NCBI RefSeq assembly: GCF_963576615.1
Contig: NC_088717.1
Span: 58,018,749 to 58,082,748, forward strand
DNA: 64,000 nt
Direction: 5' to 3'
Source of the DNA: Watersipora subatra
Lineage: Eukaryota
The position numbers and the translations under genes are program-made. This document shows positions 5,270 to 39,766 of this stretch, piece after piece. Numbering within the stretch: position 1 is the first letter of the stretch; every line of letters starts with the position of its first letter. A model generated the notes under the pieces. It was given only the letters and a program-made list of their open reading frames with translations. It was not told the DNA's origin and made no database searches.

Positions 5270-7006
5270 CTACAAAAAACCAAAGTGGAGGAGAAAAGGC
5301 CACCAAAGAACTTGCAGATATTATCCTGAGATAATTTAGTATATACTGTCACTTCCACTTTGCAGTAAATTATTATTTAATAAACACTTGTGTACCCACA
5401 CTTATTTATTCTCTGACTTACCTACGCCATCAACAGCATATATGTTATTACGTATTTAGCAAGACTGGAGAATGACACTTTGAGTTACTGTATTTCTTTA
5501 ATGCAGTTTCATTAGATTGCCAAATGTCATCTTTAAAGACCTGATGATTTATAGGGACAAATGATCAGACTTGTTCAATTTTGTTTTCAGATCCTGGGAC
5601 TGCCAGTCGTGCTGCACGATAAAACGACATTGCACGATAAGTGTCGATTTTGTGTGGGACGATATCATTTTTGGGCATTTTATAGGTCAATTCTGTAATG
5701 GGGTATATCGACGTTTTCGATGTCAAAACAATAAATATCTGTGTTTAATTGGCAAAACAAACATCGATTATTGCTGGCTTTCGTGACTCAATATCGGCAC
5801 AGCACTAATTCCTGAAAACTTATTTGCGAGCCCGCGGATCTCCTTATCTTTGCGAATCCTCTAGAAACAGATCGGCGAAGTAGAACAAAAGTTTCATAAA
5901 TGTTAGTGAGAAAAGACAACTCCTAATTCTTTTTGTATTTGGACACACTTATCACTCTTGTATTTGTTTTTTTGTGAAACCTCGCAATAATCTATATTGA
6001 GAGTGCATAACTCTAAAGTTTCGATACTGAACGATATCAATAGATTACAGGGCCAATATATCATTTTGGCATGTGGTGTCATATCGCACAGCACTAACTG
6101 CTAGTAGCACGAGTTGACTCGATATGTCGCCAAGGCGTTTGAAAGAGAAAACATTGAATTTATTGCAGAGTGTATTCAATGACTTGACGCATTTTCAATG
6201 AAGTGCTATATTATCAATTGTATATTGATAGCAATCGTGCTATTTATTCAAGGTGTTTTAATGAAGTGTTCACCATATGATATAATGCATATGATACCAA
6301 ATACATGGAAATACAAAATGTAATTTTACTGCAGAGTTAACGGAAAAGTTGCAAGCCTATTTACTGTTTTTTTATTCAAATTATAATCAAAACCATGTGA
6401 TTGAAATCAGAATCCAAGTTTCCCTTTCATTATTTTTCGACTGATTAAAACTATTTTCAACGACAAAGTTTACCTCAATTATCTAAAACAAAAAGACTAA
6501 GCTATTGAATTAAGTTAAAAATATGATAGAAAACTAACACAGCACCCTTTTACTAAAATAGAAACTTGATGAGATTGTAACGAGTCATACCCAAGGCAAA
6601 TGTTCGTCGTTGCAACAGCCTACCAATAGCCATTGGCAACAAATCTATAACTGCACATCTTTAGGTAATAAATATGGAGACAGCCTTAGTTCAATTTTTA
6701 TAAACTAGCCAGGCATCACATTTCACTTACATTCTGACCAGTGTTGAAAGAATATCAAGGAACAATATCAAGTGACAGACAATTCTTAGTGTTTTTAAGG
6801 GACCTATTCATCAAAAGCTAAGAATAAATGCCACACAAACTTGTGTTGCCAACTATGTCACAATTTTATAATATAAACGAAATATCTAGTCAACCCGCTT
6901 ACCAAAATTATTTTCCGTATTGCAAAGTCTATATATCCTAAAAACTAGACTTTTTAAACATTTGAGTTCTTTGAAATCCTGCAAACATTAGGTGGTTTCA
7001 AATTAC

Positions 7007-7157
7007 CTGAAAACACTTCCATTTTGTCTATTCCCTTTTTAACCATGGACTTGACATGAGCAGACATATTGTCTTCAAACTTCTTCATATCTTCCTCAGA
7101 TCGTCCATTCTCCTTCATTTTGCCTTTGACAGCTTTGAGATAAGGCTTAATATGAGC
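7007..7157 (-). CDS. tpt1: TCTP exon 3. It encodes AHIKPYLKAVKGKMKENGRSEEDMKKFEDNMSAHVKSMVKKGIDKMEVFS(G).
   Basis: It aligns with human TCTP [51 protein letters not shown]. The acceptor is catctttgcag|GCTCAT. The donor is TCA G|GTAATT, in phase 1. Confidence 0.9.
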
Positions 7158-8663
7158 CTGCAAAGATGATGAGATACAAAAACCTAAAAATCCATAAACT
7201 GCTCCTTGTAGGACAGAAAAGGGACACAATAATTGCCATGTAGCTACCACATGTATTTAGACCCGCTGACTATCGCTACTTCAGTAGATGATTCTTAAGT
7301 GACATTACTTTAACATACAGATATTCTTATAACCATAATGTGACATAAATGTACAATAACTTTGAAAAATATTTGACATCATAAGCCCACTTGAACTAAA
7401 AGTCAGCAACAAAAGGTTTAATCCATAACTCCTGAACAAGTGGTCAGAGCACTTACGAGGTTAATAAATAAAAACTAGGTAATTTCAACGCAATAGTTGT
7501 CTGAAAAATGTAATATAACGTGCAAAATCTGCAAAAAGATAACATCTTTTCAACTTTCTCACTACACTATCATTTTTTAGACACGTAGTAATTATGAAAG
7601 TAGAACTTTCGAGCATCTTGTACTAATAATTCAATCTAAAATGTTTTGAATTTGTGGAAGGACAAATCGGTTAGAGACATTTTAGCACTAACCCGCTGGT
7701 TTTGACAAGTTAGTAAGTAATCAAGATCATGTAACTTTTGGGCAGATACACTTTCTTACACTGACTAGAAGACATGCATGTTAGGAGCAAACTGAAAACT
7801 TGAGATTTAGATCATGCACATACAGAAATAAACCTAAGGAAGAAAATTCAGAACCTGCTGATTGCCTCAGAACCGGCCTGATTAGAGCAGCACATAGCAC
7901 AAGTTAAAATAATAATAAAATAACAATAGGTATGTTTCCTACTAAAAACATTAAGATTATTTAGGGTTCTATAACATCAAATTATGACTATAAGTAACAT
8001 GGCAAAAATGTGTAGAACAAACCCAAGTACACAACAGCCAACATTTTACTTTTGAATTCATTGCTTAACATGAGCCAATACCGACAGACTTTTCAATGTT
8101 GTATATCTTGTTCAAGGGAACAACGAGTAATGTAAACGCCAAGCTGCATATGCGATGAACTCTTACTAATTTAAACTAATAGATGTAGCGCAAGTAAAAC
8201 TGCATATTTCCATCGCTCATTCTACTGCCAAATATAGGCAACAGTAACGGCTCCTAATTGATTTAAAGGTTTTTTTACTAAGGAATCAACAGATGTAATT
8301 CATGTTCGGCGACTTGATATGAAAGCACTGTCATAGCAATGACATGTACACTCATTTATAATGAAAGGCCATGGAAAATTTTCTATCTATCCATTGACTG
8401 CTGCTGTTTAGCAGCATCAAATGGAGCCTCCATGATTTTACTACGAGGAGCTAGCCAAAATTATCGCCACAACAAAGATTCTTGACATGAAAATAAGACT
8501 GTTTACTACAAGAATTGTGGCAGCGAAGCCAGCGCTAGCACAATCTGTAGAATGAAACCAAAATTTCCCAGCAATCAATAAACAAAGTAGGGTTTTGTGA
8601 TAATCCCATTACAACTTAGTTAAACGATGGCACGAGTTAAGAATCTTTATAACCAAGACATAC

Positions 8664-8893
8664 CATAAAACCTTTTTTGTCGAATGGTGGCTGCTCAGCA
8701 AGCCGATTCTGAATTACAACGTCGTATCCTTTCTTCTCAGCTGACTCAACTCCCTCGGAAGCCTCCTCTGCACTTGCATTTCCACCAATGAGTGACTCAT
8801 CTATTTCAGTGCTTTCACTCACCATCTTGCAATTGACTTCAATAATTCCATCCCGCCGAATAATATTGAATGAATCCGTGAACAACTCATCGC
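8664..8893 (-). CDS. tpt1: TCTP exon 2. It encodes (T/G)DELFTDSFNIIRRDGIIEVNCKMVSESTEIDESLIGGNASAEEASEGVESAEKKGYDVVIQNRLAEQPPFDKKGFM.
   Basis: It contains the TCTP signature IGGNASAE and aligns with human residues 11-98. The acceptor is ttgtgttattag|GCGATG. The donor is TTT ATG|GTATGT, in phase 0. Confidence 0.9.
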
Positions 8894-9181
8894 CTAATAA
8901 CACAAAACATCGACACTAAATCATTATAGCTAACTTCAGTTTGAAAACATGAAATATCAACTCGAACCAGCTTTGAAGAGAATAAATGGCAAATACATTT
9001 AATTAACAAATGAATAGGAAACCAACAATGTTGCTTTAACAATCTTCTTGTAATTTCGATGGTGAGAAATTGCAGAGGTCAAAATATTTTGACTGTGCCT
9101 GGTATAAATAAAAACCAGGTATTCCCACAAATGGTCCAGTAAAGTTGCTTAGGTTTTTAATAAACTTTCAAGTTTACTAAC

Positions 9182-9209
9182 CTGTAATGATGTCCTTGAA
9201 TATTATCAT
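9182..9209 (-). CDS. tpt1: TCTP exon 1 with the start codon. It encodes MIIFKDIIT(G).
   Basis: ATG is at 9209..9207 on the minus strand. MIIFKDIIT corresponds to human MIIYRDLIS. The donor is ACA G|GTTAGT. The assembled protein is 172 aa, the same length as human TCTP. Confidence 0.88.
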
Positions 9210-9551
9210 TTTTAATGGATTTGCCCAGCTTCTTTTCAACGGGGAAAGAAAGTGGCACTGTACCCACTGTGACACATAAAGGAAAGACTCCGTAGTCCTA
9301 CTTAGTGTACCATGAGTAACAATCGGATTTACATAGTCTCAAGAATAATTCTCATGCTGTACAATTATTGCTACATGTCTATGGTTGACACTCATCTTGT
9401 TTGACGAATAGTCGATCTCTTGTTCGTGGAGATAATAAGTGAACAGCTAGCTTACTTCGGAGACCCGACAATCGCCCCGAGCAGTTTCCTACTGATCTTG
9501 TCTTGCGAAGAATGCAATAATAATAATTTTATGCGACAGTAGTTTTATAAC
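9210..9551. promoter_or_regulatory. Shared bidirectional promoter between the divergently transcribed TCTP (minus) and UBE2K (plus) genes.
   Basis: The two start codons are only ~340 bp apart on opposite strands. Upstream of TCTP, the minus strand carries oligopyrimidine tracts (cactttctttcccc, ctttccttt) compatible with a 5'-TOP start. A locally CpG-richer segment lies at 9410..9490 (cgaatagtcgatc...gacccgacaatcgccccgag). Confidence 0.55.
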
Positions 9552-9614
9552 ATGGCGAATATCGCTAGCCAAAGAATTCAAAGAGAATTTAAAGAAGTTA
9601 TCAAAAGTGAAGAG
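9552..9614 (+). CDS. ube2k: UBE2K (ubiquitin-conjugating enzyme E2 K) exon 1. It encodes MANIASQRIQREFKEVIKSEE.
   Basis: It is almost identical to human UBE2K MANIAVQRIKREFKEVLKSEE. The donor is GAG|GTTTGT. Confidence 0.92.
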
Positions 9615-12600
9615 GTTTGTAAAATTTTGTACAGGCATGGCCATCTTCAAACGGTGTTGTTCAACAGGTTGCCAAGTATAAAAAAAACTTGCTTGATGGA
9701 TAACATTTGAGAAATTTGGTATCGATGTTTATCCGTGGATCATTGATTTGGCTACTGTGACTCACAATTATATGGCTATTTAGGCGAATTTTTGTTTTAA
9801 ACATATCTACAGTAATACTTCAGAAGGTTTTGCTTACTTTGATGCTATGAACGTATTGCTGTAGCCTAGTAGGTTTTAACGAGGTTATGTGAGTATGTCG
9901 CTGATTTTGTATATTTTTACATATAACTCATAGTTGGTGACTGGTACTTGTCTCATGCTCCAGTACTAATACAAGTTGTATTATCTCTGCTGTCGATAAG
10001 CTTGCGATTCGCTGTCTTTCAATCGTTATTTTTGTGTTAGTTAGCCACCAATTAATCATCATTACAACTCTGACCATTTTTCTCTCGAATGATAATAAAA
10101 ATCGGTTTGGAAACTTTATTATTTAGCTACTTGCATTGATCACATCCAATTCGTATTGCCATTTTTCATATCAAGTTTGCGTATTCTAACATGTTAACTT
10201 AGCTGTTTGGCTTTATCTAAGAAGCGTATGCTTATGCATGTAATGCCTTTTAGGCACCGCTTAGTTTTTGCTTGTGCAAGAAGTAACCACCTAAATCTGA
10301 TTAAAAGAAAAACCTAAATACATATACATGCGTCAGTTTCCTTTAATTTCAAGCTTATTTTATGCTTTCATAGCTTCATCATTTAAACTGAGTTTTACCT
10401 AAAATATAGCAAGGTTTTTTCGAGTGGCTGTTTCTAAATAGCTCAAAATTAGGTGTTCTGCCCCATATGGGTGTAGTCCGTGTATGGCTGGTAGGCAGAA
10501 AATTGTCAGTGGTTAGAGCACTTGTAACTTGATATATATATATAATCTAGATTGATGGAAAACTAATCTGTGGTATGAAAATTGTCATAGAAATAGTGAC
10601 TGCATACTTAGGCGTTGCATTTAGTGCATTTCTGAACATGACATTCTTTTTTACCACTGCATATAAAGATTTGAAGATCATCAACATTTTACTTTTGGCT
10701 TACACAAAACTATATATATAGCACAGGAACACCAGCTCGAATTACATCGTTACATTATCTTAGGTCCCCTTGGAAACCAAAACTTATGAAGCTAATATGC
10801 AAATAGCTTTTAGCTATTTGCATATTAGCTTTATAATAGTTTTTATAGCTTTATATTATTCGGTCAATAATAGCTATTATTTAGCTATTATTGACTTGCT
10901 TGTGAATATCAAGCCGACCGAAAGTTTTGCTAATTTGGATAATTTGCTGAATCCTCCACGTTAATTATATCCAGTTTGTCATTGTGCGTACGTTTTTCAC
11001 ACGTTTTTCATCCAAACTTCATACGCATATGTTCTGTTCCCCCATAAATATTTGGTTTCAAAATTGTGTCTGATTCTCAAGAACCAGCTTCTTTAAGATG
11101 TGGTTGCATCAAATTTTAGTTGATTTCAAAAGAAAGCATTTTTTTATCAGTTGATACGTTGTTTTTTGTGTTAGGCGATCTCATTGTCAAGATATTTGAA
11201 GATTAAAATTGATCGCGATAAAAATGCCCAAGCCAAAAAGACATGCCCAGACTTGCCCAAAATGATGTAAGGCATGATACAACCTGTCTCTATTTCTCGT
11301 ATTCACATCGGCTATTGCGATAAAAGTCTAGTCCTACGCGGCTCTATTGGCATATTTTTTATTTTTTATTTACTCGTGTTGGCTAGAATAAAATTTTAAA
11401 TCTAGCTACAGATACATTATTATAAATGTCTCAAACGCCTCAAATAAGAGAAATTGAAAACTTGTCATATTAGCTTCCTCTAAATGCTGTGTAAACATCG
11501 GAGTACCGACTTCTGCCTGTTTACGGTAATTAGGTCGTCGAGATAACTTATTTCATCGCGGCCTTTGTATCAGCTAAGTTTTCAGTGGCTAATCACACCG
11601 GAAACTTGCTACTAAATAAAATAAACGCGCTGCCATCTTTGAATAGAATATGTTTTAATATATGGCGAAACCAGCTGCATCCCAAAAGGTCATGTATAGT
11701 CAACGTTATCTAATCATTATCAGTGTTAATTTGTAGAAAAGATTTACTGGTCACATTTGATTAGTTGATTCAAGTACAAAACAAATGTTTTGTGAGTTGA
11801 CCGAAATAGTGAACGCAAAACAACGTCAATTTCTTTGAAATCAGATAACTCACCGATTCTGGTATAGGATTACTAAAGCCATTCTTGCACCTGGTTGGTG
11901 GTTTGTGGACTCACCTGTTTTTATTTAGTAAGGTGGAGCATAAACGTTTTTGAACTTAATAGTTGGTCCGTTGGAATTGAGTCGAGCTATGCAAAAGTAA
12001 CCGCCAATACAGCTCTTATTTCACTTCATAAATCCATAGAAATCTATCAGAGAAGATTTCAGCACAGGTCGCAACAGGACTATGATGTATTCAATATGTT
12101 CTGCAAATCATGTTTTGTATGGTCCTCAACAATATTATTTTTTTATATAATTTTTACAAGCCAAACAATTTTCATCGCAGCATTAAGTTTTTATTAAAAA
12201 CATCCATCCAAGTTGTGGCCATTCACATTGTTTCAGCTCATATAATAGGACAAATAATCTACTGAAGCAAACTCAAACAAAACATATTATAGTGTGTGTA
12301 GCACACATTCGCGTCTCTCTTTCCCATTTGTGGCAGTTTCCAGACCTACACGACTGCTCCCCTAGTGAACCACATAAACATTCCGTAACAATAAAACAAA
12401 TTTAATACATGTCATTCATATATATGTCGTTCTAACGCATATCTACCGAAAGCGTTCAATTTGAAAGTTAGATAGATTGCGAGTGTAATTTTCAAAATGA
12501 ATAAATGTTTAACAAAAGCATAAATACGCAAAGCCAACAATTCGAAGCTTTGTTTCTGAGAGTTAAAGATGAGCAATGATCAATCGATGTTTCTCACTTT

Positions 12601-12919
12601 CTACAAGTGGGAAATGAACATAAATTCTAATCATAAATCTAATTAACTAGCTAAAAATGCCAAAGAAAATTTTAAGCAAATGTTATAGCTAGGTGAAACG
12701 AATAAAAAGTTATGAAATGATGATTCGTGATATCAAAAAGTTATAATTTTACTTATTAGTAGATGTATTCATGAGTACTAAATTTATTACCGTTAGTTTA
12801 GAATATATATGTAAGGTATACTCAAAGTTAAAAATAAATTTACCTCCATTCTCCTATCTTTCTCTGCAGCATAGCGTTGTTGACGTCTGTCAGCTCTAAC
12901 CATAACCTGTTTGCTGCAA

Positions 12920-13805
12920 TCTTTAAAGGTTGACCTGCAACAAAATTCACATTACAGTTATTTGGTATCAAAAGATTCACCATGTTTTACTCTGTTGTGT
13001 TGTAAGTGCAAAATATGTGGAAATGGGATTACAAGCTCTTAAAAGCTCAAAAACGAAAATCTGCCGTAGATTGGAATCAGTTTATTTCTCTGACGTAGTC
13101 ATTACATCTGGTTATTGTTTTGTCATGTGATGTTCTCATGTAAATTGAAAGACCAATAAAAGGCTCAATATAAAACTTCTCTTAGCATTAGTTTATGACA
13201 AACACTTCGGGTTTTACCAAAAACCCCCTATGAAATATAGATGCTCGCTACTTTACAGTTTTGTTTCGGCTTGGTCTAATCATCTAGTCGTAATCTGATC
13301 ATGTGACCCATACTTTGCGAATAATTTCTGCAGCATTTTTCGATTATCACAGGTGACCAACAAGCTCGTCATGTTATCATACAATGATATGTACTCCTTC
13401 AAGCTAAGGTTAAAATATTAAACGAATTTTCATGGTAGGTTATAAGATATCAGGGCTGAAAGTGATAGCATTACAATGACGATAAAATAGACACGTAAGA
13501 ACAATAGACATGGTTTTATTGAGTGCTTGAAGTATATTTGTGAAAATATTTCGACGATTAAGGTTGCATGAAAGTGTAAACAGAAGCCATCTTGTACAAC
13601 TACGTCCCATTTGAGCCATTTGGGAAAGAGATTCTAAATTATGGCAGTTTCGTGATGGCCGCGATTAACTGTTCGTTTTGAGCTTTTAAGAGCTTGTTAT
13701 CACATTTCCACATGTTTTGCACCTACAACGCAGCAGAGTAAGACATGGTGAATTTTTTGATACCAAATAATTGTAATGTGAATTTTGTTGCAAGTCAACC
13801 TTTAA
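12920..13805. mobile_element. Foldback or MITE-like non-autonomous element: a ~150 bp perfect or near-perfect inverted repeat flanking a ~600 bp non-coding core.
   Basis: Positions 12925..13072 (ttaaaggttgacctgcaacaaaattcacattacagttatttggtatcaaaagattcaccatg...ctcaaaaacgaaaatctg) are the reverse complement of 13660..13803. There is no ORF inside. It sits in UBE2K intron 1. Confidence 0.7.
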
Positions 13806-16800
13806 TCACCTGACGCTCAGAAAACTTTGAGTCACCTTCGCTGAACTGAGCATTGTTACAATTCTGTTGTTCGTCAATAAAAACGTGTTGGTGCAGTAAT
13901 TCAGTAAATCAATTATGTGGATTAAATCAGTAAATTAAATATCAATGTCGATACTCGTAGCTAATAGAATCTACTAGTAGTCGGTGCACGTAACTTACAA
14001 GTAATAGAGCAAAATTCCCAACAACGAGAATCTTCGAAATCACAGACGAACCGTTTTACGAGCGGTAACATTTAATATGACCTATATAAAAGTTTCATGC
14101 TGATGATTGGCTAATGAAGAGATCTTATATTTATTGCTTGTGGACTCTTTTCACATGTATCATTTGTTATGTAATGAATGAAGCACTCGCTGGAATCTGA
14201 GCTTTTTAAAAGATGGCCTCATTCAAACGCTTATATCTCTAGACAGGGTTAGTCTATAAAGACAAAAATGACATCAAATTGTAGCTCATGTTTTAGCCTT
14301 TTATTGGTCTAAATTTCATTAAATCGACCTTTTTGACGCAACCACATCTTTAAGCACCTATCTGGAGGCATTTGATTAAAAAGAACAACATCTCGGGCAT
14401 TGTCAGTCTTACTGCTAGTGTATATGTGTACATATGTATATGTGTATATATTGTTATTAGTTCTCCTTAGCTGTTTTTTGAAATAACCAACAGCATGTAA
14501 ATTTGTAATTTTATCTAGCTGCAAAATGTTAGTTGCAACACTATCCAATGACTGATATGAAAATACATTGTCTTAAATTGATATTTTGGTTGGTTTACTG
14601 CAGTAGCAGTTAATAAAAAAAGCCCTTTGGTTAAATTTTGCAGGTTTTGAATCTTATTGCTCGTGAAATGTTGTTAAATGATGTCATCCTTTTCTAGCAT
14701 AACTTTTTTATGGATAATTTTATTTTGAAACATTTTATTACCCAAAGTATAGTTTGTCAAATGAATATACAACATTATAATGAGCACTTTACTGGATACA
14801 TTTATTTCATATTATTATTTCTACACTTATTTGAACTCTGAAATACTAGAGTTACTCAGTTACAAGTAGTAAGCCCGGTGATGTCTAGTATTTCTTTCAT
14901 TATCAACCAGATAGCCAGCGCGGGGTGTTTAGGAGACTGGTTCATAGGTACCTGATAGAGCTTTGATACCAAGTGTTTCTATGGACCTGACAGAAGATAC
15001 CAAGTGTTTTTATGGACCTGACACAAGTCATGCACTATATGAGTGGCAAGTTTAGATGTTTCAACCAAAGAGTGTAAAAACACAAAATGTTTATACGGAC
15101 ACACACACTCAATGACAAAGTCCGATTTATTAATAACGACTATAAAACAGATGAGACATCAAATAAAAATCAATTTTATTTATATCTATAGTGAGGGAGT
15201 CGAAGCTTTTCTATTTGCATTAAAGTTTTGGTCAGTTTTGATCAGTTTTGATTTTTTTAAATCTGAGTTTTTATGGTTTGACACTTGACCTCAGCTGATT
15301 TATAATCAAAACATTCATTGTTTGGCATCTTTGAAAATATAACAATTTGATACATAAATCTTAATTACATTTTTCTGTTGTTTGCTTAAAAATATTTTTC
15401 CGCTACGACAAAATGATCACTAGCTTGTAATATTCAGTTATAAAAGTCATGTGTTTATTTTGTGGTGAGAAATGAAAATTGAACTGTTTTATGTCCTCAT
15501 GTTTCTCAATATTGCTTCATCTCAAACTATGTTTTTTAAGTTACCATAAAACCTGTAATTGAATGCCACCTTTATTTGAACACTACTTTCCTTTGACCGC
15601 CACTTTGACCTTTATAGACCCTTAATATCAAACAATCAGTAGAAAAGTGTCTACAAAATAATATTAATAATGAATTGTGTACATCAATAACAATCAATTC
15701 TCTCGTTGTCAAACTTCAAAGCTTTCAGCTTTTTTTTTTAAACTATGAAAGCAACACCATAAAAATGATAACTGTCTCAGTCTAATAATAGTTCCTAGTT
15801 TAACGCGGTCTTAATATTTTGAAGTACATGTATATAAAAACGGTGTAGATTTACGATGGTAAAATGAACAACTAGTTTTAGGCTAAAGATTACGTTTAGC
15901 AAGCAAACCTTTTACGCGTCGCATTTGTGCTAAATGCAATGAGTAAAACTTTTGCTCTGCTAAAAAGTCATTTTGACGCTAATATCGACTAGTTCAGCAG
16001 GGTAGAAAAGGAGTTGAGGTCAGAAGACATTGTGGAAGGCATTGGACAACCAGAAGATGTTCGTTCCATCGAAAGCAACAATCAAAACGACCTGGCTGAG
16101 CAAACAATGCAAATATTTTGGTTTTAAAAACATTAATTTTTGGTTCCGCGTGAAATATAAGTATGATTCGTTTATGTCACTTGTTCATGGACATATATTT
16201 GTACTATTTGACAGATCATTATATAACTTGTAAATTTGCAGATCTATAGCATATTATTTGATAGCATCATTGCGGTAATCTGATCTTACAATTGATCGAC
16301 GCTCATAACTCCTCTTCTACCGCACATAACAAACTAGTTTTGTCTGCAAACTGTAGCAAACATCAACGAATGCAATGAGCTTTTATGCAACAATGTTAAA
16401 TATAGATATAAAATAAAAATGTCTCTAAATTTAGAATGAAATAAAAATTGAAAGCTCCAACAGATTGCAAAGCAGGACACAGGCTATAATATCATCAATA
16501 GGTTTATTGCAAGCAATAGATATTAGCTGGTAGGGATATTTCTCCATTTCTAAACGCATATTTATTAGAGATGTTAGGCAAGTTGGCGTATTTATTGTAT
16601 CCAAAAGGTTTAATGTCGCTCCATTGGAAGAAGAGGGCAAAATATAGGCGACATTCGCTTCGCCTGTAAAAGAGCTAAATTTATCTTCCCAAAATTCTGA
16701 TGAGCCATTTAATAAATACACCGCCAGCTTTTATTTGAAAGTCGCCTCCAATTGCCCGCCATTATAGAGGAAAGGTTGAAAAATAGAGCGCCATGGCAGT

Positions 16801-17552
16801 CAATTTGAGGTTTTACGGGAATCTGGTTAGTTGTACCTCTAATAACTGAGCTCATTTTATGACAATAAAATAGGAATACTATTACTATAATAGGAATACT
16901 CAAATAGGAATATTAAACTGCTATCAACAAATAGTTTCTGAATTATCTTCACTTTGTCGTTTTATCTTTGATTTATCTTCTCTTGCCAACACAGAGATTG
17001 CATATTCTAAGCTCAAGTCCTTCCACAACATTTTTTGAATGCATAGTAAAATGTAATCAATGTAAGCCATCAATATCAAGTCATTTGACCACCAAAGGTT
17101 TTAATCAGACAAGCTCCTGAGACATAGACTTAGAAACTTGTTAATGAATCTGTCTCGTCGTGCCAAATCACTAGTTTTCAAGCAATGGGAGATGAGATCG
17201 GAGATTAGTCGTTCTGTCTATATTATCATAGTTTGTGACAAGTCTAGGCTTGTCCATCAACGTTGAACATTTGTCCTCCTGTTTGCCGCCTAACTGACCT
17301 GTTGGATTGAGGTTAAATTTTTGTAGATCAGCATAAGCACTATTTATACAGCATATACTGGTTTGATAGTTTTATTAAGCAATTACCATGATAATAAAAA
17401 CATAAAAGAGGGTAAGAAAGTGTTAATATTGAATTCAATGATGCGTTTGTGCCTCACTTAGACTTGCTTCTATGAAAATCATTTGCTTAAATTTTTGCTT
17501 TCTTAGATCAAACAAATGTCTGTACCAAACAAATTTCTAGAAGTCGCATGCC

Positions 17553-19802
17553 AAATGTTAATATGATTCTATGCTGCCCAGTGTCACATGTCAAATATTA
17601 ATATGGCTCTAGGCTGCCCAGTGTCAAATGTTAATATGGTTCTATGCTGCCCAGAGTCAAATGTTAATATGGTTCTATGCTGCCCAGAGTCAAATATTAA
17701 TATGGCTCTAGGCTGCCCAGAGTCACATGTCAAATGTTAATACGGTTCTATGCTGCCCAGAGTCAAATGTTAATATGGTTCTATGCTGCCCAGAGTCAAA
17801 TATTAATATGGCTCTAGGCTGCCCAGAGTGAAATGTCAAATGTTAATAAGATTCTAGGTTGTCTAGTGTCACATGTTAATATGGTTCTATGCTGCCCAGT
17901 GTCAAATGTTAATATGGTTCTAGGCTGCCCAGTGTCAAATGTTAATATGGTTCTATGCTGCCCAGTGTCACATGTCAACTATTAATATGGTTCTATGCTG
18001 CCCAGAGTCACATGTCAAATGTTAATATGGTTCTATGCTGCCCAGTGTCACATGTCAAATATTAATATGGCTCATAGGCTGCCCAGAGTCAAATGTCAAA
18101 TGTTAATAAAATTCTAGGTTGTCTAATGTCAAATATTAATATGGCTCTAGGCTGCCCAGAGTCAAATGTCAAATATTAATATGTTTTTAGGTTGTATAGT
18201 GTCAAATATTAATATGGCTCTAGGCTGCCCAGAGTCACATGTCAAATATTAATATGGCTCTAGGCTGCCCAGAGTCACATGTCAAATATTAATATGGCTC
18301 TAGGCGGCCCAGAGTCACATGTCAAATATTAATATGGTTCTATGCTGCCCAGAGTCACATGTCAAATATTAATATGGCTCTAGGCTGCCCAGAGTCACAT
18401 GTCAAATATTAATATGGCTCTAGGCTGCCCAGTATCACATGTCAAATATTAATATGGTTCTAGGCTGCCCAGTGTCACATGTCAAATATTAATATGGCTC
18501 TAGGCTGGCCAGAGTCACATGTCAAATGTTAATATGGTTCTAGGCGGCCCAATATCACATGTCAAATATTTATATGGCTCTAGGCTGCCCAGTGTCACAT
18601 GTCAAATATTAGTATGGTTTTAGGCTGCCCAGTGTCACATGTCAAATGTTAATATGGTTCTAGGCGGCCCAGTGTCACATGTCAAATATTTATATGGCTC
18701 TAGGCTGCCCAGAGTCACATGTCAAATATGGATATGGTTCTAGGCTGCCCAGTGTCACATGTCAAATATTGATATGGTTCTAGGCTGCCCAGTGTCACAT
18801 ATCAAATATTAATATGGCTCTAGGCTGCCCAGAGTCAAATGTTCATATGGCTCTAGGCTGTCCAGAGTCACATGTCAAATATTAATATGGCTCTAGGCTG
18901 GCCAGAGTCACATGTCAAATATTAGTATGGCTCTAGGCTGCCCAGTGTCACATGTCAAATATTAATATGGCTCTAGGCTGCCCAGTGTCACATGTCAAAT
19001 ATTAATATGGCTCTAGGCTGGCCAGAGTCACATGTCAAACGTTAATATGGCTCTAGGCTGCCCAGTATCACATGTCAAATATTAATATGGCTCTAGGCTG
19101 CCCAGAGTCACATGTCAAATATTAATATGGCTCTATGCTGCCCAGAGTCACATGTCAAATATTAGTATGGTTCTAGGCTGCCCAGTGTCACATGTCAAAT
19201 ATTAATATGGCTCTAGGCTGCCCAGTGTCACATGTCAAATATTAATATGGTTCTAGGCTGCCCAGAGTCACATGTCAAATATTAATATGGCTCTAGGCTG
19301 CCCAGAGTCACATGTCAAATATTAATATGGCTCTATGCTGCCCAGAGTCACATGTCAAATATTAGTACGGTTCTATGCTGCCCAGAGTCACATGTCAACT
19401 ATTAATATGGTTCTAGGCTGCCCAGTGTCACATGTCAAATATTAATATGGTTCTAGGCGGCCCAGTGTCACATGTCAAATATTAATATGGCTCTAGGCTG
19501 CCCAGTGTCACATGTCAAATATTAATATGGCTCTAGGCTGCCCAGTGTCAAATATTAATATGGTTCTATGCTGCCCAGTGTCACATGTCAAATATTAATA
19601 TGGTTCTAGGCTGGCCAGTGTCACATGTCAAATATTAGTATGGTTCTAGGCTGCCCAGTGTCACATGTCAAATATTAATATGGCTCTAGGCTGCCCAGTG
19701 TCAAATATTAATATGGTTCTAGGCTGCCCAGTGTCACATGTCAAATATTAATATGGCTCTAGGCTGGCCAGAGTCACATGTCAAACGTTAATATGATTTT
19801 AG
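17553..19802. repeat. 40-bp satellite of about 55 units (2.25 kb) with consensus CTAGGCTGCCCAGWGTCACATGTCAAATATTAATATGGYT. Some 33-bp variants lack ACATGTC.
   Basis: Direct reading shows the unit repeated head-to-tail with point variants. The final, degenerate unit runs straight into the UBE2K exon-2 acceptor at 19801..19802. Confidence 0.95.
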
Positions 19803-19955
19803 GTTGCCAAGTGTCACATAAAGCTTGAACTGAAGAATGATGATTTTACACAGCTCAAGGGGGAAATTATTGGGCCACCTGACACCCCGTATGACGGAGG
19901 CGTGTTTCAAGTCGACATTGTAATACCGGAGACCTACCCATTTAATCCTCCTAAG
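19803..19955 (+). CDS. ube2k: UBE2K exon 2. It encodes VAKCHIKLELKNDDFTQLKGEIIGPPDTPYDGGVFQVDIVIPETYPFNPPK.
   Basis: It aligns with human TSKNQIKVDLVDENFTELRGEIAGPPDTPYEGGRYQLEIKIPETYPFNPPK. The acceptor is gattttag|GTT and the donor is AAG|GTAAAT. It is 153 nt long, in phase 0. Confidence 0.9.
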
Positions 19956-20125
19956 GTAAATGTCTCGCTTCACATTCCTTCATCCTTTTCCCAGTCCCTC
20001 TACCGGTGCTAATTTAAGGGCACAAGTTTACTTATGATAGGGTTTTCTTAACAGTTGAACTGTTTGTCTCACGTTATCTGAAGGTTATATTTAATAGCAA
20101 TAACAACTCCTGCTGTTCATTGCAG

Positions 20126-20208
20126 GTCAAGTTTGTAACTAAAATCTGGCACCCAAATATAAGCTCAGTGACAGGTGCCATCTGCCTAGACATTCTCAAA
20201 GATCAATG
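20126..20208 (+). CDS. ube2k: UBE2K exon 3. It encodes [27 protein letters not shown](W), including the active-site Cys.
   Basis: It matches human [28 protein letters not shown], with the HPN motif and catalytic Cys. The acceptor is cattgcag| and the donor is TG|GTGAGT. Confidence 0.92.
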
Positions 20209-20314
20209 GTGAGTCTGCCAGCTGTGCTGGTAGTTCCTAAGGTTTGCTCTTATACGTGCCCTGAAAGCCAGCTGGGATATTATGACAGCTTTATAACCAT
20301 TGGCTGTTTTGCAG

Positions 20315-20478
20315 GGCTGCGGCCATGACACTTCGAACTGTCCTTTTATCGCTACAAGCCTTGCTCTCCGCTGCCGAGCCAGATGATCCTCAAGATGCTG
20401 TTGTTGCAAGACAATACAAAGAGCAACAAATTGTTTTTAGGCAAACTGCGAAGCATTGGGCCAACATATATGCTCAGG
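20315..20478 (+). CDS. ube2k: UBE2K exon 4. It encodes AAAMTLRTVLLSLQALLSAAEPDDPQDAVVARQYKEQQIVFRQTAKHWANIYAQ(G).
   Basis: It is near-identical to human AAAMTLRTVLLSLQALLAAAEPDDPQDAVVANQYKQNPEMFKQTARLWAHVYAG. The acceptor is ttttgcag| and the donor is CAG G|GTGAGT. Confidence 0.92.
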
Positions 20479-20578
20479 GTGAGTGCTCAAGTATTCATTC
20501 CCATTCCGTGTACAGTTTCTCTCTATTCTTTTACCCTAAGTCATGCCTCGCGAGTCTCATATTAGAGTTTATTTCTAG

Positions 20579-20643
20579 GGCCAAACCGAGAAGCTGAACT
20601 AGAAGCCAAAGTATCTCAGCTTAAAGCTATGGGATTTGATGAG
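20579..20643 (+). CDS. ube2k: UBE2K exon 5. It encodes (G)PNREAELEAKVSQLKAMGFDE.
   Basis: It corresponds to the human linker ...KKIENLCAMGFDR. The acceptor is atttctag| and the donor is GAG|GTCAGT. Confidence 0.8.
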
Positions 20644-20908
20644 GTCAGTTTAGATACAGGGGAGTACATTGAAACCTTGACATACTAAGTTCAAGGTTAA
20701 CTTACAGCATTTTAAAATGACATATTTATATACCGAAATACTCGTGATATGTTGTTGTCAACAATGATTTTAATAGAAAAAAAAATCATTTTGGCGACAA
20801 CAACTTCAAGCTGTGACATAAGGAGGCTATAGAAGGAGGGAAACCATAGTCGTATAATGTACAATACGAATGCTAGTGACTCTCTTAATCATCAGCATTC
20901 ATATTGTA

Positions 20909-21343
20909 CATTCTATGAATGAGCGACATTCTATGAATGAGAGACATTCTATGAATGAGAAGCATTCTATGAATGAGAGACATTCTATGAATGAGAGACA
21001 TTCTATGAATGAGAGACATTCTATGAATGAGAGACATTCTATGAATGAGAGACATTCTATGAATGAGAGACATTCTATGAATGAGAGACATTCTATGAAT
21101 GAGAGACATTCTATGAATGAGAGACATTCTATGAATGAGAGACATTCTACGAATGAGAGACATTCTATGAATGAGAGACATTCTATGAATGAGAGACATT
21201 CTATGAATGAGAGACATTCTATGAATGAGAGACATTCTATGAATGAGAGACATTCTATGAATGAGAGACATTCTATGAATGAGAGACATTCTATGAATGA
21301 GAGACATTCTATGAATGAGAGACATTCTATGAATGAGAGACAA
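20909..21343. repeat. 18-bp minisatellite (CATTCTATGAATGAGAGA)n of about 24 units, in UBE2K intron 5.
   Basis: The array is perfectly periodic. It generates the artefactual MNERHS and SLIHRM repeat ORFs 20870..21370 and 20885..21373 in the track. Confidence 0.95.
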
Positions 21344-22859
21344 AAGGGCTTCTGTTGGCCACCATTCTAACACATTCTCTCCATCTAGCTGCCATGCTTC
21401 CTATTTTAGCTACCCATATAGCAGATAGATGTTTGCAAGGTCGAAGTAGGTTTCACAAATTCCAAAAAAAGGTCTGCGTCATGTTTATACATCCTGCATT
21501 TACTTTTGACTGATGGTTATAGAATTACACTAAACAGCTTGTGTGTACATCTTGTGGAATTCCCTCGCAACTAATTCTTTTATACGAACAGAAACTTCAA
21601 AAGATTGTCAGCAAAAATTGGCTATTTTGAAAGTCACCTGTTTAAAACTTATCAATGCATGTTCTACTTTTATAAAATCATTATTTTATTTTCATAAAAA
21701 ACTTTTCATTCATTTTTATAAAAATGAATTTTTATAAAATCTAGTTAAAAAGCTGAGCAGATTAAATATTACGTAGCGTCGCAGCTGTTTTTGGTGGGTT
21801 TCTGTAAAGCTGGCAAATCTTTTTTTTATTACTTGCAACTGTTGATAAATCTGGTATTTGTTCAAAATTACCCAAAAATATGATTCAAACTTTAATCTGT
21901 AATGGTATTTGCTAGCGTTAATGCAATTACAATTTGCACTGTCAATTAACCTTTCTTCATTACTTCGACATGCATGTCGAAGCTGTCATATGTTATTGAG
22001 CAGACCGTCTTAAGACAACACTGTGCTTTGTTTAACACATTTCATGGCTCAAAAACTCGATAAAGGCTTCATGTAGTTACAAATAACATTCGAACAAAGG
22101 CAATATATCAAATTTTAGTTCCAAAACTGATGTTTGGGAAGTTTTGGATGTCATATGTAGGAAATTACCTTGTTTGTCGATACAAATATTATCTTGAATT
22201 TTACATCGTCTATCTCAAATAATTGGTATTTAGATATGGCCAGATGTAGATGTTAGATTGTGTTAGCAATGCTAGACAAAATAAGATGATTGTGAATGTA
22301 TTAAAGGTGCTAAACATAGCTTAAATCTGGCTTATTTGTGATACCTGCGGTTTATCTAAGTACTCCTCAGTAATTTATTATTCTATGGTTCTAAGGCTTT
22401 GGCATCATCTACTTGACGACCTTGGAAATTGCTGAGTTCTTTTGTCAATCCTCTGTTCTTAATCCTCTTTTCTATATAAATAGCCATTTTGAGCTGGTGA
22501 CCTATATAAAGTCAGTTTGGACCCAAGCGTTCATCATCCTGTCAACACTCTTGCTTATCACTGACCAGTTGATCCTCCCAATTAGAATCCATTTTCAATG
22601 TTGGATACTTTACCTAGTTTTAGATTGGAAGAATTATGCAACTCCTTTGATAATTGGGTTATTCCCATTAGTGAGAAGACAACTACTTTCAATCTCACAA
22701 ATTCTTACTCAATGACTTAAACATACATGTAGTTCAAATTATTTTTAGTAAACTTTTGCTGTTTCACCTACTTATTGTATTTGCCTAGAATTTTGAACAA
22801 GCAATATAAACTATTACAATCCGTCATACTGTTATCATGTTTAATGTTAATTTATGCAG

Positions 22860-22931
22860 CATCGAGCAAGGGTCGCTCTTTCTACCTGCGATTGGAATAT
22901 GCAAAGGGCTACCGACCACCTTGTCAGCTAG
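22860..22931 (+). CDS. ube2k: UBE2K last exon, part of the UBA domain. It encodes HRARVALSTCDWNMQRATDHLVS*.
   Basis: It aligns with human RNAVIVALSSKSWDVETATELLLSN*. The acceptor is tttatgcag| and the stop is TAG at 22929..22931. Confidence 0.85.
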   Translation, partial: HRARVALSTCDWNMQRATDHLVS

Positions 22932-23879
22932 TTGACTAACCTACTCCCTCCGCTGCCAGAGTTCTACTCCTGTTCCTTGTTCACCAGTGTACTGTGGCTC
23001 AGCTACCAGATCCATCAGAAGTTGTCGTTCCAACTGCGGGACTGTATAACTCAAGTCCCTCGCGAGCTCGTTATGTTCTGAATTGTCCACTCGTGTTTAA
23101 CTTGGCTATCCTTGTATTATAACTGTGTTTTATAGTAGGTTTGCTGTTACTAATATTCATTGCTTGATAGTGCTTTCGCCATGCCTTATATAAATTCATT
23201 TATCCTGAGAACTCGGATTTTTTCTGGTCAGGTTTACAATACAGCATAACTGGTTCTATTTCGAAAGGTTTGGCGTTGTTAGAGATTTGCCTTACCTCCT
23301 ATTTGATTTTTTAAATAATTAAAACAAAAAACCGCTGTTGATTAGTATTTCATGATCAATACAATACACAAAATAGAACCTGCGGATTAATATTTAAATG
23401 CTGCCCCATCATTTGTGGTGTTATTACTCGCAGTAAAATTATTTCACTCTGTATACATGTGTACATGACTCCTACATATTGTACATGGTATGTTTATATG
23501 ACTTATAAGAGTCAGGATCTATATAGAAACTTGTTTTTGCTGACAATTCGTGTTGCTTCAAAAAGGTTACAGCAAACAACACGAGTTACACTTTTTATTA
23601 ATAAGCCTTCAATCATTGTTAACTAGCTTTTTAGAGAGACAAGCTTACAGCAAAACACTATAAAGGCTCTGAGTTATAGCGGCAGTTGGTGTCAAAGCTT
23701 ACCTGTGCCGAAACTCTTAGTGTTGTGTGCAACAACGCTTTGACCTTGAAACGCATCTACAGATTAATAAATGACTGCAATGTCGGGCAATGGCTAAAGT
23801 TTCTCTCGTTCATCCACACAGACATCCCCAACAAGTGTATGAAGCCGTCCTTGAATATCTTTTAGTCTTCATAATAAAT

Positions 23880-26410: not shown

Positions 26411-27967
26411 AACCTCTTGCTAAGTATCAGCAATCTGTTCACTTCGCCTATATTGACTTCATTCTTTGGTAGGTTTTTGTCATCGTGTTCAACCCTTAAA
26501 GCGCCATCAAATGATGTAAGTTATTTTTGCTTTATGCTCCATGTTACCAAGATTGTAAAACTTATTTTTGTGAGTTTTTCTTAGCTTAAATCTAGCTTAG
26601 CAAAAATTTGTTGTGTTAATGCTCTTATTCACCACGGACATGCTGAAAATTTTATGTGAGATAAAGTGTTATCCGTGTTGCTGACATATTGACTCCTTGA
26701 CCTCCTTGACTGACTCTACGCCCAAACTTAAAGAAGCACCGCAATATGTTTACAGTGCAGAATAAATATGTTTGCTTCACTTGTGCACTGTCATAACACG
26801 TGTGTACAAGAAAGCACAAATGAGCTGTCTTCTTGTCTTTTGGCCTTGTATCATAAAGGCAGCAATCTTCGCTCCCTTTTTTATGCCGTCTACTCCAAGC
26901 CATTTTGTGCCGTTCTGATCCAAGTCGCCTTGGTATGGGTTGGTCTCACATCCTCCACAATATACGGTAATTGTAAAGAAATTCAAGCCGTATTCATTAC
27001 TTCTGTATAATGCTGCATGATGTCAATTAATATGCAGCCACAAGAAATCAGTTTATTATATTAAAGGGAAAGGTTGTTTACCAAGTTACATTACTATAAT
27101 AAAGCAGTAGGTTTTATAATATTTATATTAATATATTAATATTTATATTATTACTACTTGTAGAATAGAGTAGTAAGGGAGGCATTGAGAAACTTATGGA
27201 AAAATGTCGGAATAACAAGTAGGTCGATAATTACTAATCGGGAGAATAGGTACATGTATATCCAAAACTACCTTCTGTTCTGACTTACAACTTTAAAACT
27301 TAAGTTTTCTGACTTATATAGCTTTAGTAATGAAACCATGTAAAATATATTCCCTAATGACATCTGAGTAATGAAAGACAGCAAATAAAGAATATGCAAA
27401 ATTATATCAATAAGAGATTGTTGCACCCATTATAAATAAGTTCAGAGAAGAGGCAGCATTTACAATGATTAGTTTGTTTTTTCTAGATGACAAAGTCTAT
27501 TTTGAAAAGTAAAACTAAAAACAAATATTTTATATGTCTACAACAAAGTGAAAAATAGATATATTTTTTGCTATAAAAAGAGCGGTGTCTATCTGTTTGT
27601 TTATTTGTATTTAGGGGGTCAAGGTTAGGATAAAAAACAACTTTCAACGATACTCCAACTCGTGACATTCAGATTAATAAACTGATGCTGTAACACCAGT
27701 GCCAATCGACCGTATCCGTATCACCTTCAAGTATTTATGAACAATTGCACAGCCACCTATTTTCTGTTTTGTCGACACATCTGACAATCTGTCACAACCA
27801 ACTAAAATGTCATGGAAGTTATATATAGAATAGATAGAGTGCTATACGTATGTCAATATAAGTGCGGCGAAATACTATGTTAATGTGAATTTCTTACGCG
27901 GTAGGAAGCGAAAACAGCAAAAAAATTTTACGATATCTGAATTTACATTATAGGAGCTTCTACTGCA

Positions 27968-28478
27968 TAGCCATCTATTATACTGACATATATAGCCATC
28001 TATTATACTGACATATATAGCCATCTATTATACTGACATATATAGCCATCTATTATACTGACATATATAGCCATCTATTATACTGACATATATAGCCATC
28101 TATTATACTGACATATATAGCCATCTATTATACTGACATATATAGCCATCTATTATACTGACATATATAGCCATCTATTATACTGACATATATAGCCATC
28201 TATTATACTGACATATATAGCCATCTATTATACTGACATATATAGCCATCTATTATACTGACATATAAAGCCATCTATTATACTGACATATATAGCCATC
28301 TATTATACTGACATATATAGCCATCTATTATACTGACATATATAGCCATCTATTATACTGACATATATAGCCATCTATTATACTGACATATAAAGCCATC
28401 TATTATACTGACATATATAGCCATCTATTATACTGACATATATAGCCATCTATTATACTGACATATATAGCCATCTAT
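27968..28478. repeat. 25-bp minisatellite (CATCTATTATACTGACATATATAGC) of about 21 units.
   Basis: Direct reading; the copies are nearly perfect. Confidence 0.95.
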
Positions 28479-30789: not shown

Positions 30790-32012
30790 GTTTGACTTCC
30801 TACTACATATATGATTATTTTATTATTATATATTATTACTACTACATATATGATTATTTTATTATTATATATTATTACTACTACATATTCTAACGTACCT
30901 GGTTTTTGCGTCCTACCTCTCGCGTGCTCGCAGTTAAGATGCCGCTATCCCCCTTTCTCCTCGCGAACCGGACATCCGGTTCTCCGCATCACACATATAT
31001 GATTATTTTATTATTATATATTATTACTACTACATATATGATTATTTTATTATTATATATTATTACTACTACATATATGATTAGTTTATTATTATATATT
31101 ATTACTACTACATATATGATTATTTTATTATTATATATTATTATTATAACATACATGATTATTTTATTATTATATATTATTACTACTGCATATATGATTA
31201 TTTTATTATTATATATTATTACAACTACATATATGATTATTTTGTTATTATATATTATTACTACTGCATATATGATTATTTTATTATTATATATTATTAC
31301 TACTACATATATGATTATTTTATTATTATATATTATTACATTACATATATGATTATTTTATTATTATATATTATTAAAACTACATATATGATTATTTTGT
31401 TATTATATATTATTACTACTGCATATATGATTATTTTATTATTATATATTATTACTATTACATATAAGATTATTTTATTATTATATATTATTGCTACTAC
31501 ATATATGATTATTTTATTATTATATATTATTACTACTACATATTTGATTATTTTATTATTATATATTATTGCTACTACATATATGATTATTTTATTATTA
31601 TATATTATTACTATTACATATATGATTATTTTATTATTATATATTATTACTATTACATATATGACTATTTTATTATTATATATTATTACTATTACATATA
31701 TGATTATTTTATTATTATATATTATTACTATTACATATATGATTATTTTATTATTATATATTATTACTATTACATATATGATTATTTTATTATTATATAT
31801 TATTACTATTACATATATGATTATTTTATTATTATATATTATGACTATTACATATATGACTATTTTATTATTATATATTATTACTATTACATATATGATT
31901 ATTTTATTATTATATATTATTACTACTACATATATGATTATTTTATTATTATATATTATTACTACATATATGATTATTTTGTTATTATATATTATTACTA
32001 CTACATATATGA
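30790..32012. repeat. 39-bp AT-rich satellite (CTACATATATGATTATTTTATTATTATATATTATTACTA) of about 29 units, interrupted at 30889..30993 by a unique GC-rich ~105 bp insert.
   Basis: Direct reading. It generates the artefactual MIILLLYIITTTY repeat ORFs 30811..32029. Confidence 0.95.
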
Positions 32013-38375: not shown

Positions 38376-38534
38376 GTGGTGTGAAATTTCATGGTAGTAG
38401 TTAATAAATAGCTTACTCGAGTGAGAGTTCTTTGGTAATATTATTGGATGTTTTTTTAGCTCGGTAAGAGATAAAGAATTTCTTGCTCTCCCACCAATCT
38501 TTATTAAGCCATGTTGATCCAGGTAGGGGCTTAA

Positions 38535-39374: not shown

Positions 39375-39766
39375 CCCATCCAGGCACCTAGGTATTTCTA
39401 GTTAGAGTTGTGACAGTTGAGTAGCCCATCTGTTCCACAATTGATTCATTTCCTCATTGAGAGGTTCATCCCAATCAACACTAGTCTTATTGACCTTCTG
39501 CAGTATATTTCTTCCCTGGTGTGTGAATGGTGCTAAAAGACCAATGGGATCAAAAAGCTGACCGACTACAGACAGTATGCCACGTCTTGTGACAGGCCCA
39601 GCTTTAACATCACTTCCACTAAATCTGAAAAAATCTTTATTAAGGTCCCACTCCAATCCTAGGGTACGTTGAGGAGACAGATAATCTGCAAACAAATCGA
39701 TTGCTTTCTCCGACTCGGGAATCGATGATAAAACTGAAGAATCATTGCTAATGAACTTATGAAGTC

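Follow-up and report, generated by a model that had tools for sequence, protein, structure and literature searches.

A UBE2K splice junction in Watersipora subatra as the probable source of an acceptor-side intronic minisatellite

Intronic minisatellites whose end monomer lies across an exon-intron boundary have been described in F7 intron 7, CBS intron 13, the interferon-inducible gene 6-16, lamin B2 and PDGF, and the members named in the relevant passages of PMC1557585 are all human, all on the donor side, and of 5 to ~25 copies. In the 37-bp minisatellite of F7 intron 7 (Borensztajn et al. 2006, PMC1557585) the first monomer consists of 4 nt of exon and 33 nt of intron, the 5-9 copies are strictly identical, and normally only the exon-adjacent copy is used, with use falling with distance even though the pseudo-sites are functional. 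The passages of the same source that deal with other genes count 25 pseudo-sites in 6-16 and 15-20 repeats in CBS intron 13, and report that in both genes the two pseudo-sites nearest the authentic site are used. The donor-side arrays of F7, CBS and 6-16 have served as an argument for position-based splice-site selection. The subject of the present text is an array on the acceptor side, a 40-bp minisatellite in intron 1 of the UBE2K orthologue of Watersipora subatra whose last monomer is the working 3' splice junction of exon 2; it lies in a 64,000-nt stretch of contig NC_088717.1 (assembly GCF_963576615.1, positions 58,018,749 to 58,082,748, forward strand), here called the window and numbered from its first letter.

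The explanation that best accounts for the locus as a whole, to which a probability of roughly 0.7 is attached, is that the array was born in place from the junction, that its last unit has been frozen while the remainder of the array is neutral, and that the real acceptor is chosen by its proximity to the exon.

The array and its match to the splice junction

Tandem Repeats Finder (TRF) places a single array at 17543-19819 on the + strand, with a period of 40 bp, 59.2 copies, 86% matches and a score of 2935, and cutting it into units yields 58 upstream units followed by a final unit that is the splice junction itself. An earlier, sequence-only reading of this DNA had put the copy number at about 55; the array is real, and the count becomes 58 upstream units plus the real one. 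By TRF and the unit table the arrangement is head-to-tail, with a unit of tens of bp, and is restricted to a single intron. The usual unit length is 40 bp; the heptamer GTCACAT is missing from 13 units of 33 bp, a single unit has 41 bp, and the order of unit variants along the array is non-periodic. A 24-nt unit core occurs 54 times at three or fewer mismatches, every time inside the array (shuffles expect 0), and the array's edges are sharp, the flank agreeing with the adjacent unit at 8/40 positions at the 5' edge and at 11/40 at the 3' edge.

The terminal unit, identified by register comparison, is the working junction at 19773..19812 (+) and comprises 30 nt of intron (GTCACATGTCAAACGTTAATATGATTTTAG) and exon 2 nt 1-10 (GTTGCCAAGT), so that the end monomer spans the exon-intron boundary and the acceptor is repeated within the intron. 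It is followed at 19813..19819 (+) by GTCACAT, which is exon 2 nt 11-17 and also the heptamer with which the repeat unit opens, although the 5'-most unit has GTCGCAT there. The array had been described as ending exactly at the real acceptor; its last unit is indeed the junction, but the repeat continues past the acceptor, 17 nt into exon 2, to 19819. At the other end, 35 nt upstream of the 5' edge, stands a strong acceptor-like sequence, TTTTTGCTTTCTTAG (17494-17508), with a pyrimidine tract better than that of the real acceptor.

Junction and array consensus were compared in register, without an offset search. Exon nt 1-17 agree at 15/17 positions (GTTGCCAAGTGTCACAT versus consensus GCTGCCCAGTGTCACAT; binomial P = 2.5e-7), and none of the window's 3483 other AG sites exceeds 11/17. 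On the intron side 20/24 positions are identical, and a 31-nt block scores 27/31 at the junction, compared with 20/31 for the best match elsewhere in the window on both strands. Only 1/7 positions match at exon nt 18-24, and homology therefore stops after exon nt 17. The likeness between satellite and junction noted from the sequence alone is thus better than chance. Four intron-side positions separate the last unit from the consensus, whose states are GCTGCCCAG: the real junction has CG at -17/-16 where the array has AU, A at -7 where the array has G, and T at -4, giving UUUU directly before the AG in place of CUCU or UUCU.

The gene carrying the array was modelled by locating six exons on the + strand by tblastn with a UBE2K probe, after which splice sites were added. 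Along its whole length the resulting 199-aa product shows 100% identity to XP_067948118.1 of W. subatra, which is named 'ubiquitin-conjugating enzyme E2-22 kDa-like' at NCBI and has precomputed Pfam domains PF00179 and PF00627, corresponding to a UBC core and a C-terminal UBA. With identities of 71-79% to named E2-22 kDa proteins and of 68% to mammalian UBE2K, the host gene is, by sequence, a UBE2K / E2-22 kDa (UbcD4) orthologue. The match to the annotated protein upholds both the earlier gene call and the placing of the acceptor AG at 19801..19802 (+), which gives the conserved SEE/VAKCH junction (a slash marks the splice junction here and below). Intron 1 (9615..19802, +) is 10,188 nt long and separates the coding part of exon 1 (9552..9614, +; MANIASQRIQREFKEVIKSEE; from tblastn and the model, with a phase 0 donor GAAGAG/GTTTGT) from exon 2 (19803..19955, +; 153 nt), which is followed by the donor AAG/GTAAAT. 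Two further AGs in exon 2, at 19810-19811 and 19822-19823, are in frame with exon 1, the first being the homologue of the CCCAG present in every repeat unit, and their use would remove 3 and 7 conserved residues, respectively. As main sites these acceptors (19811 and 19823) were rejected, because V22, A23 and K24 would be lost, yet these residues are conserved.

Probable origin in place and the order of events

Which of the two sequences is the older can be read from the orthologues. The V-A-K-C-H start of exon 2 is conserved in 19 of them, from molluscs, annelids, arthropods and a priapulid, and the orthologous loci of the annelid Capitella teleta and the bivalve Mizuhopecten yessoensis were compared directly. 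In both species intron 1 lies at the same codon and phase, with the same donor position (AGTGAAGAG/gt ... ag/GTN GCN AAR TGY), exon 2 begins with GTCGCAAAATGTCACAT in Capitella and GTAGCAAAATGCAGTAT in Mizuhopecten, and the intron measures 1550 nt and 541 nt, respectively. No tandem array is present at the intron 1 acceptor of Capitella or Mizuhopecten, the only species compared. The conserved residues, the shared position and phase of the intron and the arrayless outgroups together mean that the exon came first; on this sequence evidence it is settled that the junction was copied by the satellite and not the reverse, and that the 17 exon nucleotides in the unit are old coding sequence. The proposal that the satellite was made by tandem amplification of the splice junction is accordingly sustained by the match in register, the conserved exon start and the absence of the array in two outgroups. 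As to whether the array is specific to a lineage, the two very distant species agree in having no acceptor array, and the answer extends as far as those two. Nor is this a case of intron gain by tandem duplication, both outgroups already having the intron, at the identical codon and phase.

That the array is a single-locus minisatellite born in place from the UBE2K intron 1/exon 2 junction is very probable. Under the scheme favored here, a 40-bp segment, with 30 nt from the end of intron 1 and 10 nt from the start of exon 2, would have been duplicated in tandem where it stood, by replication slippage between the 7-nt near-repeats GTCGCAT...GTCACAT, 40 nt apart; slippage is likely because the 40-bp stretch is bracketed by this 7-nt near-repeat. 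Through further slippage or unequal exchange the array would have spread upstream within the intron until it had 58 extra units; its interior would have been homogenised towards the derived variant GGYTCTAGGCTGCCCAG, and the 33-bp units would stem from later 7-nt slippage deletions. The downstream-most unit would have been kept ancestral as the only productive acceptor and the bearer of the conserved codons V22, A23 and K24. The sequence before duplication is predicted to have read ...GTCGCATGCCAAATGTTAATATGATTTTAG/GTTGCCAAGTGTCACAT, once.

Two domains can be distinguished within the array. An older, heterogeneous 5' domain (17543..18209, +) holds 18 units, 33 and 40 bp mixed, with a mean pairwise identity of 0.86; the AG is kept in 8/17 of its anchor-found units, and also in the 41-bp unit at 18063-18103 that the anchor missed, giving 9/18. 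A younger, homogenised 3' domain (18210..19772, +) holds 40 units, nearly all of 40 bp, with a mean pairwise identity of 0.91 and the AG kept in 35/40. Six columns distinguish the real junction from the consensus, and five of the six real states reappear in units dispersed along the array, chiefly on its distal 5' side (units at 17561, 17846, 18106, 18179, 18612 and 19045), with the exon-adjacent units showing none of the junction's diagnostic states. By these sequence variants the pattern is that of the usual unequal-exchange array, in which old variants survive close to one edge. Homogenisation has passed the last unit by, although that unit touches the youngest part of the array, and were it to take on the consensus sequence, the conserved residues V22 and K24 would become A and Q and the acceptor would be altered. 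Because of these consequences the last unit is probably under purifying selection, and the array would then illustrate the birth of a minisatellite from functional sequence, with the last unit frozen by selection and the rest drifting and homogenising.

The surroundings are rich in arrays of this general type. The window contains 32 separate tandem arrays with units of ~14-216 bp, which take up 18% of its bases, as for example those at 55490-56946 (28 bp x 52), 30993-32019 (39 bp x 26) and 27967-28478 (25 bp x 20); their units are mutually unrelated, and no 9-mer of the UBE2K-junction array occurs in any other. Such sequences suggest that local minisatellites arise very often in the W. subatra genome. 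At a density of 18% an array at a junction is unsurprising and the case not extraordinary, as array edges should hit junctions fairly often unless selected against; were arrays placed at random at a density of 32 per 64 kb, ~0.8% of junctions would have an array edge lying 17 nt or less inside the exon end. More telling would be a genome-wide count of surviving junction arrays, donors versus acceptors. The array itself is most likely a tolerated by-product of a genome with very high minisatellite output, its sequence giving no sign of adaptation.

The abundance of arrays also lends something to the thought that an existing satellite family, or an array carried in a mobile element, was inserted beside exon 2 and resembles it by coincidence. 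Copies might lie beyond the 64 kb searched, but within that span a core search at three or fewer mismatches found no other copies of the unit, an nhmmer profile of the unit run against the whole window for decayed relics returned nothing better than E = 2, and no 9-mer is shared with the other arrays. What had been raised as a possible refutation, a satellite existing elsewhere independently of the junction, is therefore absent from the window, and the result favors local birth on the scale of those 64 kb. No inverted repeats were found bracketing the array, and intron 1 holds no open reading frame (ORF) of at least 110 aa, shorter ORFs lying outside the Pfam screen. The array keeps register for 17 nt of ancient coding sequence, at a level of identity that chance would hardly produce, junction-type states occur in its distal old units, and it behaves not as a dispersed family but as one locus whose unit is continuous with the local coding sequence. 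An insertion is accordingly very unlikely.

Misassembly, whether of the array length or of the exon junction, is no likelier. Tandem arrays are liable to collapse or expansion in assemblies, but here the unit variants come in a definite, non-periodic order, the annotated protein is recovered across the exon junction, and the assembly was built from PacBio HiFi reads (PMC12902671), each far longer than a 2.3-kb array. The reverse order of events, an intronic satellite existing first and the acceptor moving upstream into it so that exon 2 nt 1-17 would be exonised satellite, draws on the ambiguity of direction that similarity alone leaves, and it is virtually eliminated by the V-A-K-C-H start at its exact position in molluscs, annelids, arthropods and priapulids, by the shared codon and phase of the intron, and by the exon start seen in Capitella.

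Choice of the 3' splice site among near-copies

An AG at the homologous position is kept in 44 of the 58 upstream units, and the other 14 read TCTATG, so that the statement that every unit carries an AG does not hold; the pyrimidine-rich stretch also ascribed to every unit is there, but only 4 nt long. By simple measures the decoys appear as strong as the real site. The 20 nt before the AG contain 11 pyrimidines in the real acceptor and mostly 11 in the decoys, the longest pyrimidine run is 4 in both, the AG-free zone is 27 nt in the real site and mostly 27-29 nt in the decoys, and the predicted probability of being unpaired averages 0.41 in both, with a spread of +/- 0.09 among the decoys. 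In all copies, the real one included, the pyrimidine tract is poorer than in the gene's other four acceptors. Two candidate reasons for the decoys' failure were rejected on these figures, namely masking by RNA secondary structure, the unpaired probability being equal, and intrinsic weakness in pyrimidine count, run length or AG-free zone, in which there is no real difference.

All 43 decoy AGs tested, when joined to exon 1, lead to a stop within 24-77 codons, with four exon junctions downstream, and mRNAs with a premature stop upstream of exon junctions are expected targets of nonsense-mediated decay (NMD). Rescue by recursive or nested re-splicing after decoy use was also considered and rejected: GT sites in the array match CAGGTAAGT at no more than 5/9 positions, save one at 6/9, and at 5/9 or less are no better than the real exon 1 donor, and the junction formed after decoy use (GAG/GCTGCC) regenerates no donor.

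Vertebrate and Drosophila work has found that acceptors with a weak pyrimidine tract usually rely on exonic enhancers and exon definition. Exon 2 contains purine-rich elements on the + strand, GAAGAA at 19832-19837 and AAGGGGGAAA at 19857-19866, so that the real AG has GAAGAA at 29 nt, a 10-nt purine run further in, and the exon 2 donor 153 nt off, whereas the array is without any purine run of at least 5 nt. The distance to GAAGAA is 69, 109 and 142 nt for the nearest decoys, whose use would give exons of 193, 233 and 266 nt, and decoys beyond ~19600 would give exons of more than 340 nt. It may be, then, that the weak 4-nt tract in every copy imposes a reliance on exonic enhancers and exon definition, that the real AG wins as the copy nearest the purine elements and the strong donor of exon 2, that remoter copies lose progressively, and that decoy-spliced products, with their early stops, would be removed by NMD. 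This mechanism, proximity to exon enhancers and the downstream donor acting together with NMD, is put forward tentatively, at somewhat less than even odds. Some low use of the decoys at 19761 and 19721 is to be expected on grounds of analogy, because the nearest two pseudo-sites are used in 6-16 and CBS.

The suggestion first made for this locus was a different one, that a branch point is confined to the unique last unit and the spliceosome takes the first AG after it. It fits the scanning from branch point to first AG that is a widely accepted model of 3' splice-site choice (PMC1557585), and the last unit does differ from the consensus at four intron positions. Yet TTAAT, the only branch-point candidate of the yUnAy type, is found in essentially every unit at the same distance, and the AG-free zone, the pyrimidine content and the accessibility of the decoys match those of the real site; the CG state of the last unit occurs also in the interior unit 19045, and the last unit has gained no new branch-point-like motif. 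A branch point unique to the last unit is improbable as the deciding feature.

The array-wide change from UUUU-AG to CUCU-AG or UUCU-AG suggests active repression as another route, in which CUCU/UUCU together with UAGG, repeated ~58 times, would recruit a repressor of the PTB or hnRNP type cooperatively, the UUUU of the real site binding U2AF. In vertebrates CU-rich tracts bind PTB and UAGG binds hnRNP A1; this knowledge is vertebrate, with none from bryozoans. The real site has UAGG too, and the difference comes to just one or two C-for-U changes, all of which leaves repression an unlikely account. The donor-side pseudo-sites of F7, for their part, are functional and not repressed (PMC1557585).

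Alternatively, the array might itself be functional, with decoy splicing and NMD setting the output of UBE2K and copy number tuning it, as a form of regulated unproductive splicing. The early stop that follows from every tested decoy and the apparent strength of the decoys would suit such a role, as would the real use of proximal pseudo-sites in the donor-side arrays of 6-16 and CBS, so far as these are covered in PMC1557585. A function of this kind, argued from sequence, is nonetheless quite unlikely: the AG has been lost in 14 units, with no pattern resembling maintenance, and arrays occur everywhere in the window, so that a neutral origin is simpler.

Against birth in place followed by proximity-based choice stand several points that account for the confidence being no higher. 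The founder unit could have been 33 bp, not 40 bp, and 'single locus' and 'lineage-specific' describe what is seen in 64 kb of a 784-Mb genome, for which an alternate haplotype assembly (GCA_963576605.1) also exists, and in two very distant species. The lines that speak for exclusive use of 19802 are the RefSeq model and protein conservation, and decoy use may be substantial and hidden by NMD. The acceptors at 19761 and 19721, 69 and 109 nt from GAAGAA, would give exons within the range of exon definition, and with the nearest decoys that close, proximity alone may not explain clean discrimination. Co-transcriptional order, finally, favors the upstream copies. As to the reading of junctions from RNA, PMC10632439 describes short-read spliced alignments as error-prone within tandem repeats.

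Neighbouring features, significance and comparison with known systems

Beyond the array, the gene continues with exon 3 (20126..20208, +), exon 4 (20315..20478, +), exon 5 (20579..20643, +) and the coding part of exon 6 including the stop codon (22860..22931, +), the remaining introns measuring 170, 106, 100 and 2216 nt. The last of these, intron 5, has an 18-bp x 24 array of its own (20908-21342, 98% identity), which begins within the right arm of a 30-nt imperfect hairpin (20850-20879 / 20889-20918, 83% complementary). No known RNA family was found by Rfam in 9000-23500, and exact scans of a metagenome collection gave 0 hits for a 28-nt array core and 0 hits for the 34-nt unique junction. 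An exact look-up of the protein XP_067948118.1 likewise returned no further assembly or transcript. Near the other end of intron 1, 53 nt downstream of the exon 1 donor, AGGTTGCCAAGT (9666-9677) repeats the acceptor AG and exon 2 nt 1-10 and is followed by a weak extension (ATAAA..CTTG). This copy beat all 1886 null windows under strict scoring and was tied by 2/1669 under permissive scoring, and as an acceptor it would give SEE/VAKYKKNLLDG-stop. It was considered as a decayed pseudo-exon 2, as the target-site duplication of a large insertion, or as the relic of an ancestral 53-nt intron, and in each case the extension is weak; no poly-A or poly-T structure fitting a retroelement is present.

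Upstream of UBE2K and divergent from it lies a TCTP gene (6954-8903, -), two exon ORFs of which match Pfam PF00838, in the place occupied in Capitella and Mizuhopecten by a PRPP synthetase gene, the divergent upstream neighbor there (positions 1-2237 of locus L001 and 1-2632 of locus L002); the old PRPP synthetase-UBE2K gene pair is not kept in Watersipora. The Mizuhopecten orthologue has a large minisatellite in intron 3 (28 bp x 52; L002 7236-8825), away from any splice junction. A second upstream neighbor of the Watersipora gene is an alpha-galactosidase-type exon (2278-2499, -; PF16499), and elsewhere in the window lie the ORFs of a Pao/BEL-type long terminal repeat retrotransposon (37581-42847, -), with matches to DUF1759 and Pao peptidase A17 and a weak match to an integrase core.

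Nature has in effect set up a competition between 3' splice sites at this locus, in a phylum that has been little studied. The locus offers 44 look-alike acceptors at 33-40-nt steps that differ mainly in their distance from the true exon, and its position on the acceptor side allows a test symmetrical to the donor-side F7, CBS and 6-16. It is a doubtful but attractive proposition that it represents the first natural acceptor-side counterpart of F7, in which only the exon-adjacent one of dozens of equal-strength, earlier-transcribed 3' sites is productive. If that is true, and the last copy is cleanly used, the array would be evidence against first-come-first-served selection and against scanning from donor to acceptor, and would favor an exon-proximal rule symmetrical to the donor rule. 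If the decoys are heavily used, it would instead be a copy-number-tunable brake on an E2 enzyme, operating through unproductive splicing.

Among more distant relatives, the gain of introns when a segment containing AGGT is duplicated in tandem, for which the examples treated in PMC4974935 include potato RdRp, is similar in that duplicated splice signals leave the mature mRNA unchanged, the extra copy being spliced out. As that case is presented, a new intron arose there from exon in one round of duplication, whereas the UBE2K intron is ancient and merely lengthened, in 58 rounds. The intronic variable number tandem repeat of ABCA7 (PMC5954066) is likewise a minisatellite that lies close to an exon and may influence splicing, and the abstract of that source says nothing of a unit copying a splice junction.

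In tandem acceptors of the NAGNAG type the two AGs keep the frame at a spacing of 3 nt, and use of both is common. Duplicated acceptor AGs would compete at one junction here too, but the UBE2K decoys are 33-40 nt apart and every tested alternative is unproductive.

The closest systems remain the donor-side arrays described at the outset. The satellite had been called unusual, a description to be tempered, given that a donor-side class has been described and that 18% of the window is tandem array. A full-text literature search found no acceptor-side minisatellite spanning a junction, a weak negative in that subscription journals were thinly covered. The arrays of 6-16, CBS, lamin B2 and PDGF share the architecture and pose the same question of splice choice, and those that PMC1557585 names are all human and on the donor side. 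With F7 the likeness is nearest: an end monomer lies over the exon-intron boundary, the splice site is repeated in the intron, and the array is limited to one intron of one gene. Splicing has been shown experimentally for F7, and the UBE2K array is known from its sequence alone. The UBE2K array also has 58 extra units of ~86-91% mutual identity, includes 17 nt of exon, and counts 14 units without an AG. The chief difference is one of side, F7 having its array at the donor and UBE2K at the acceptor, where the last monomer holds the 3' splice site.

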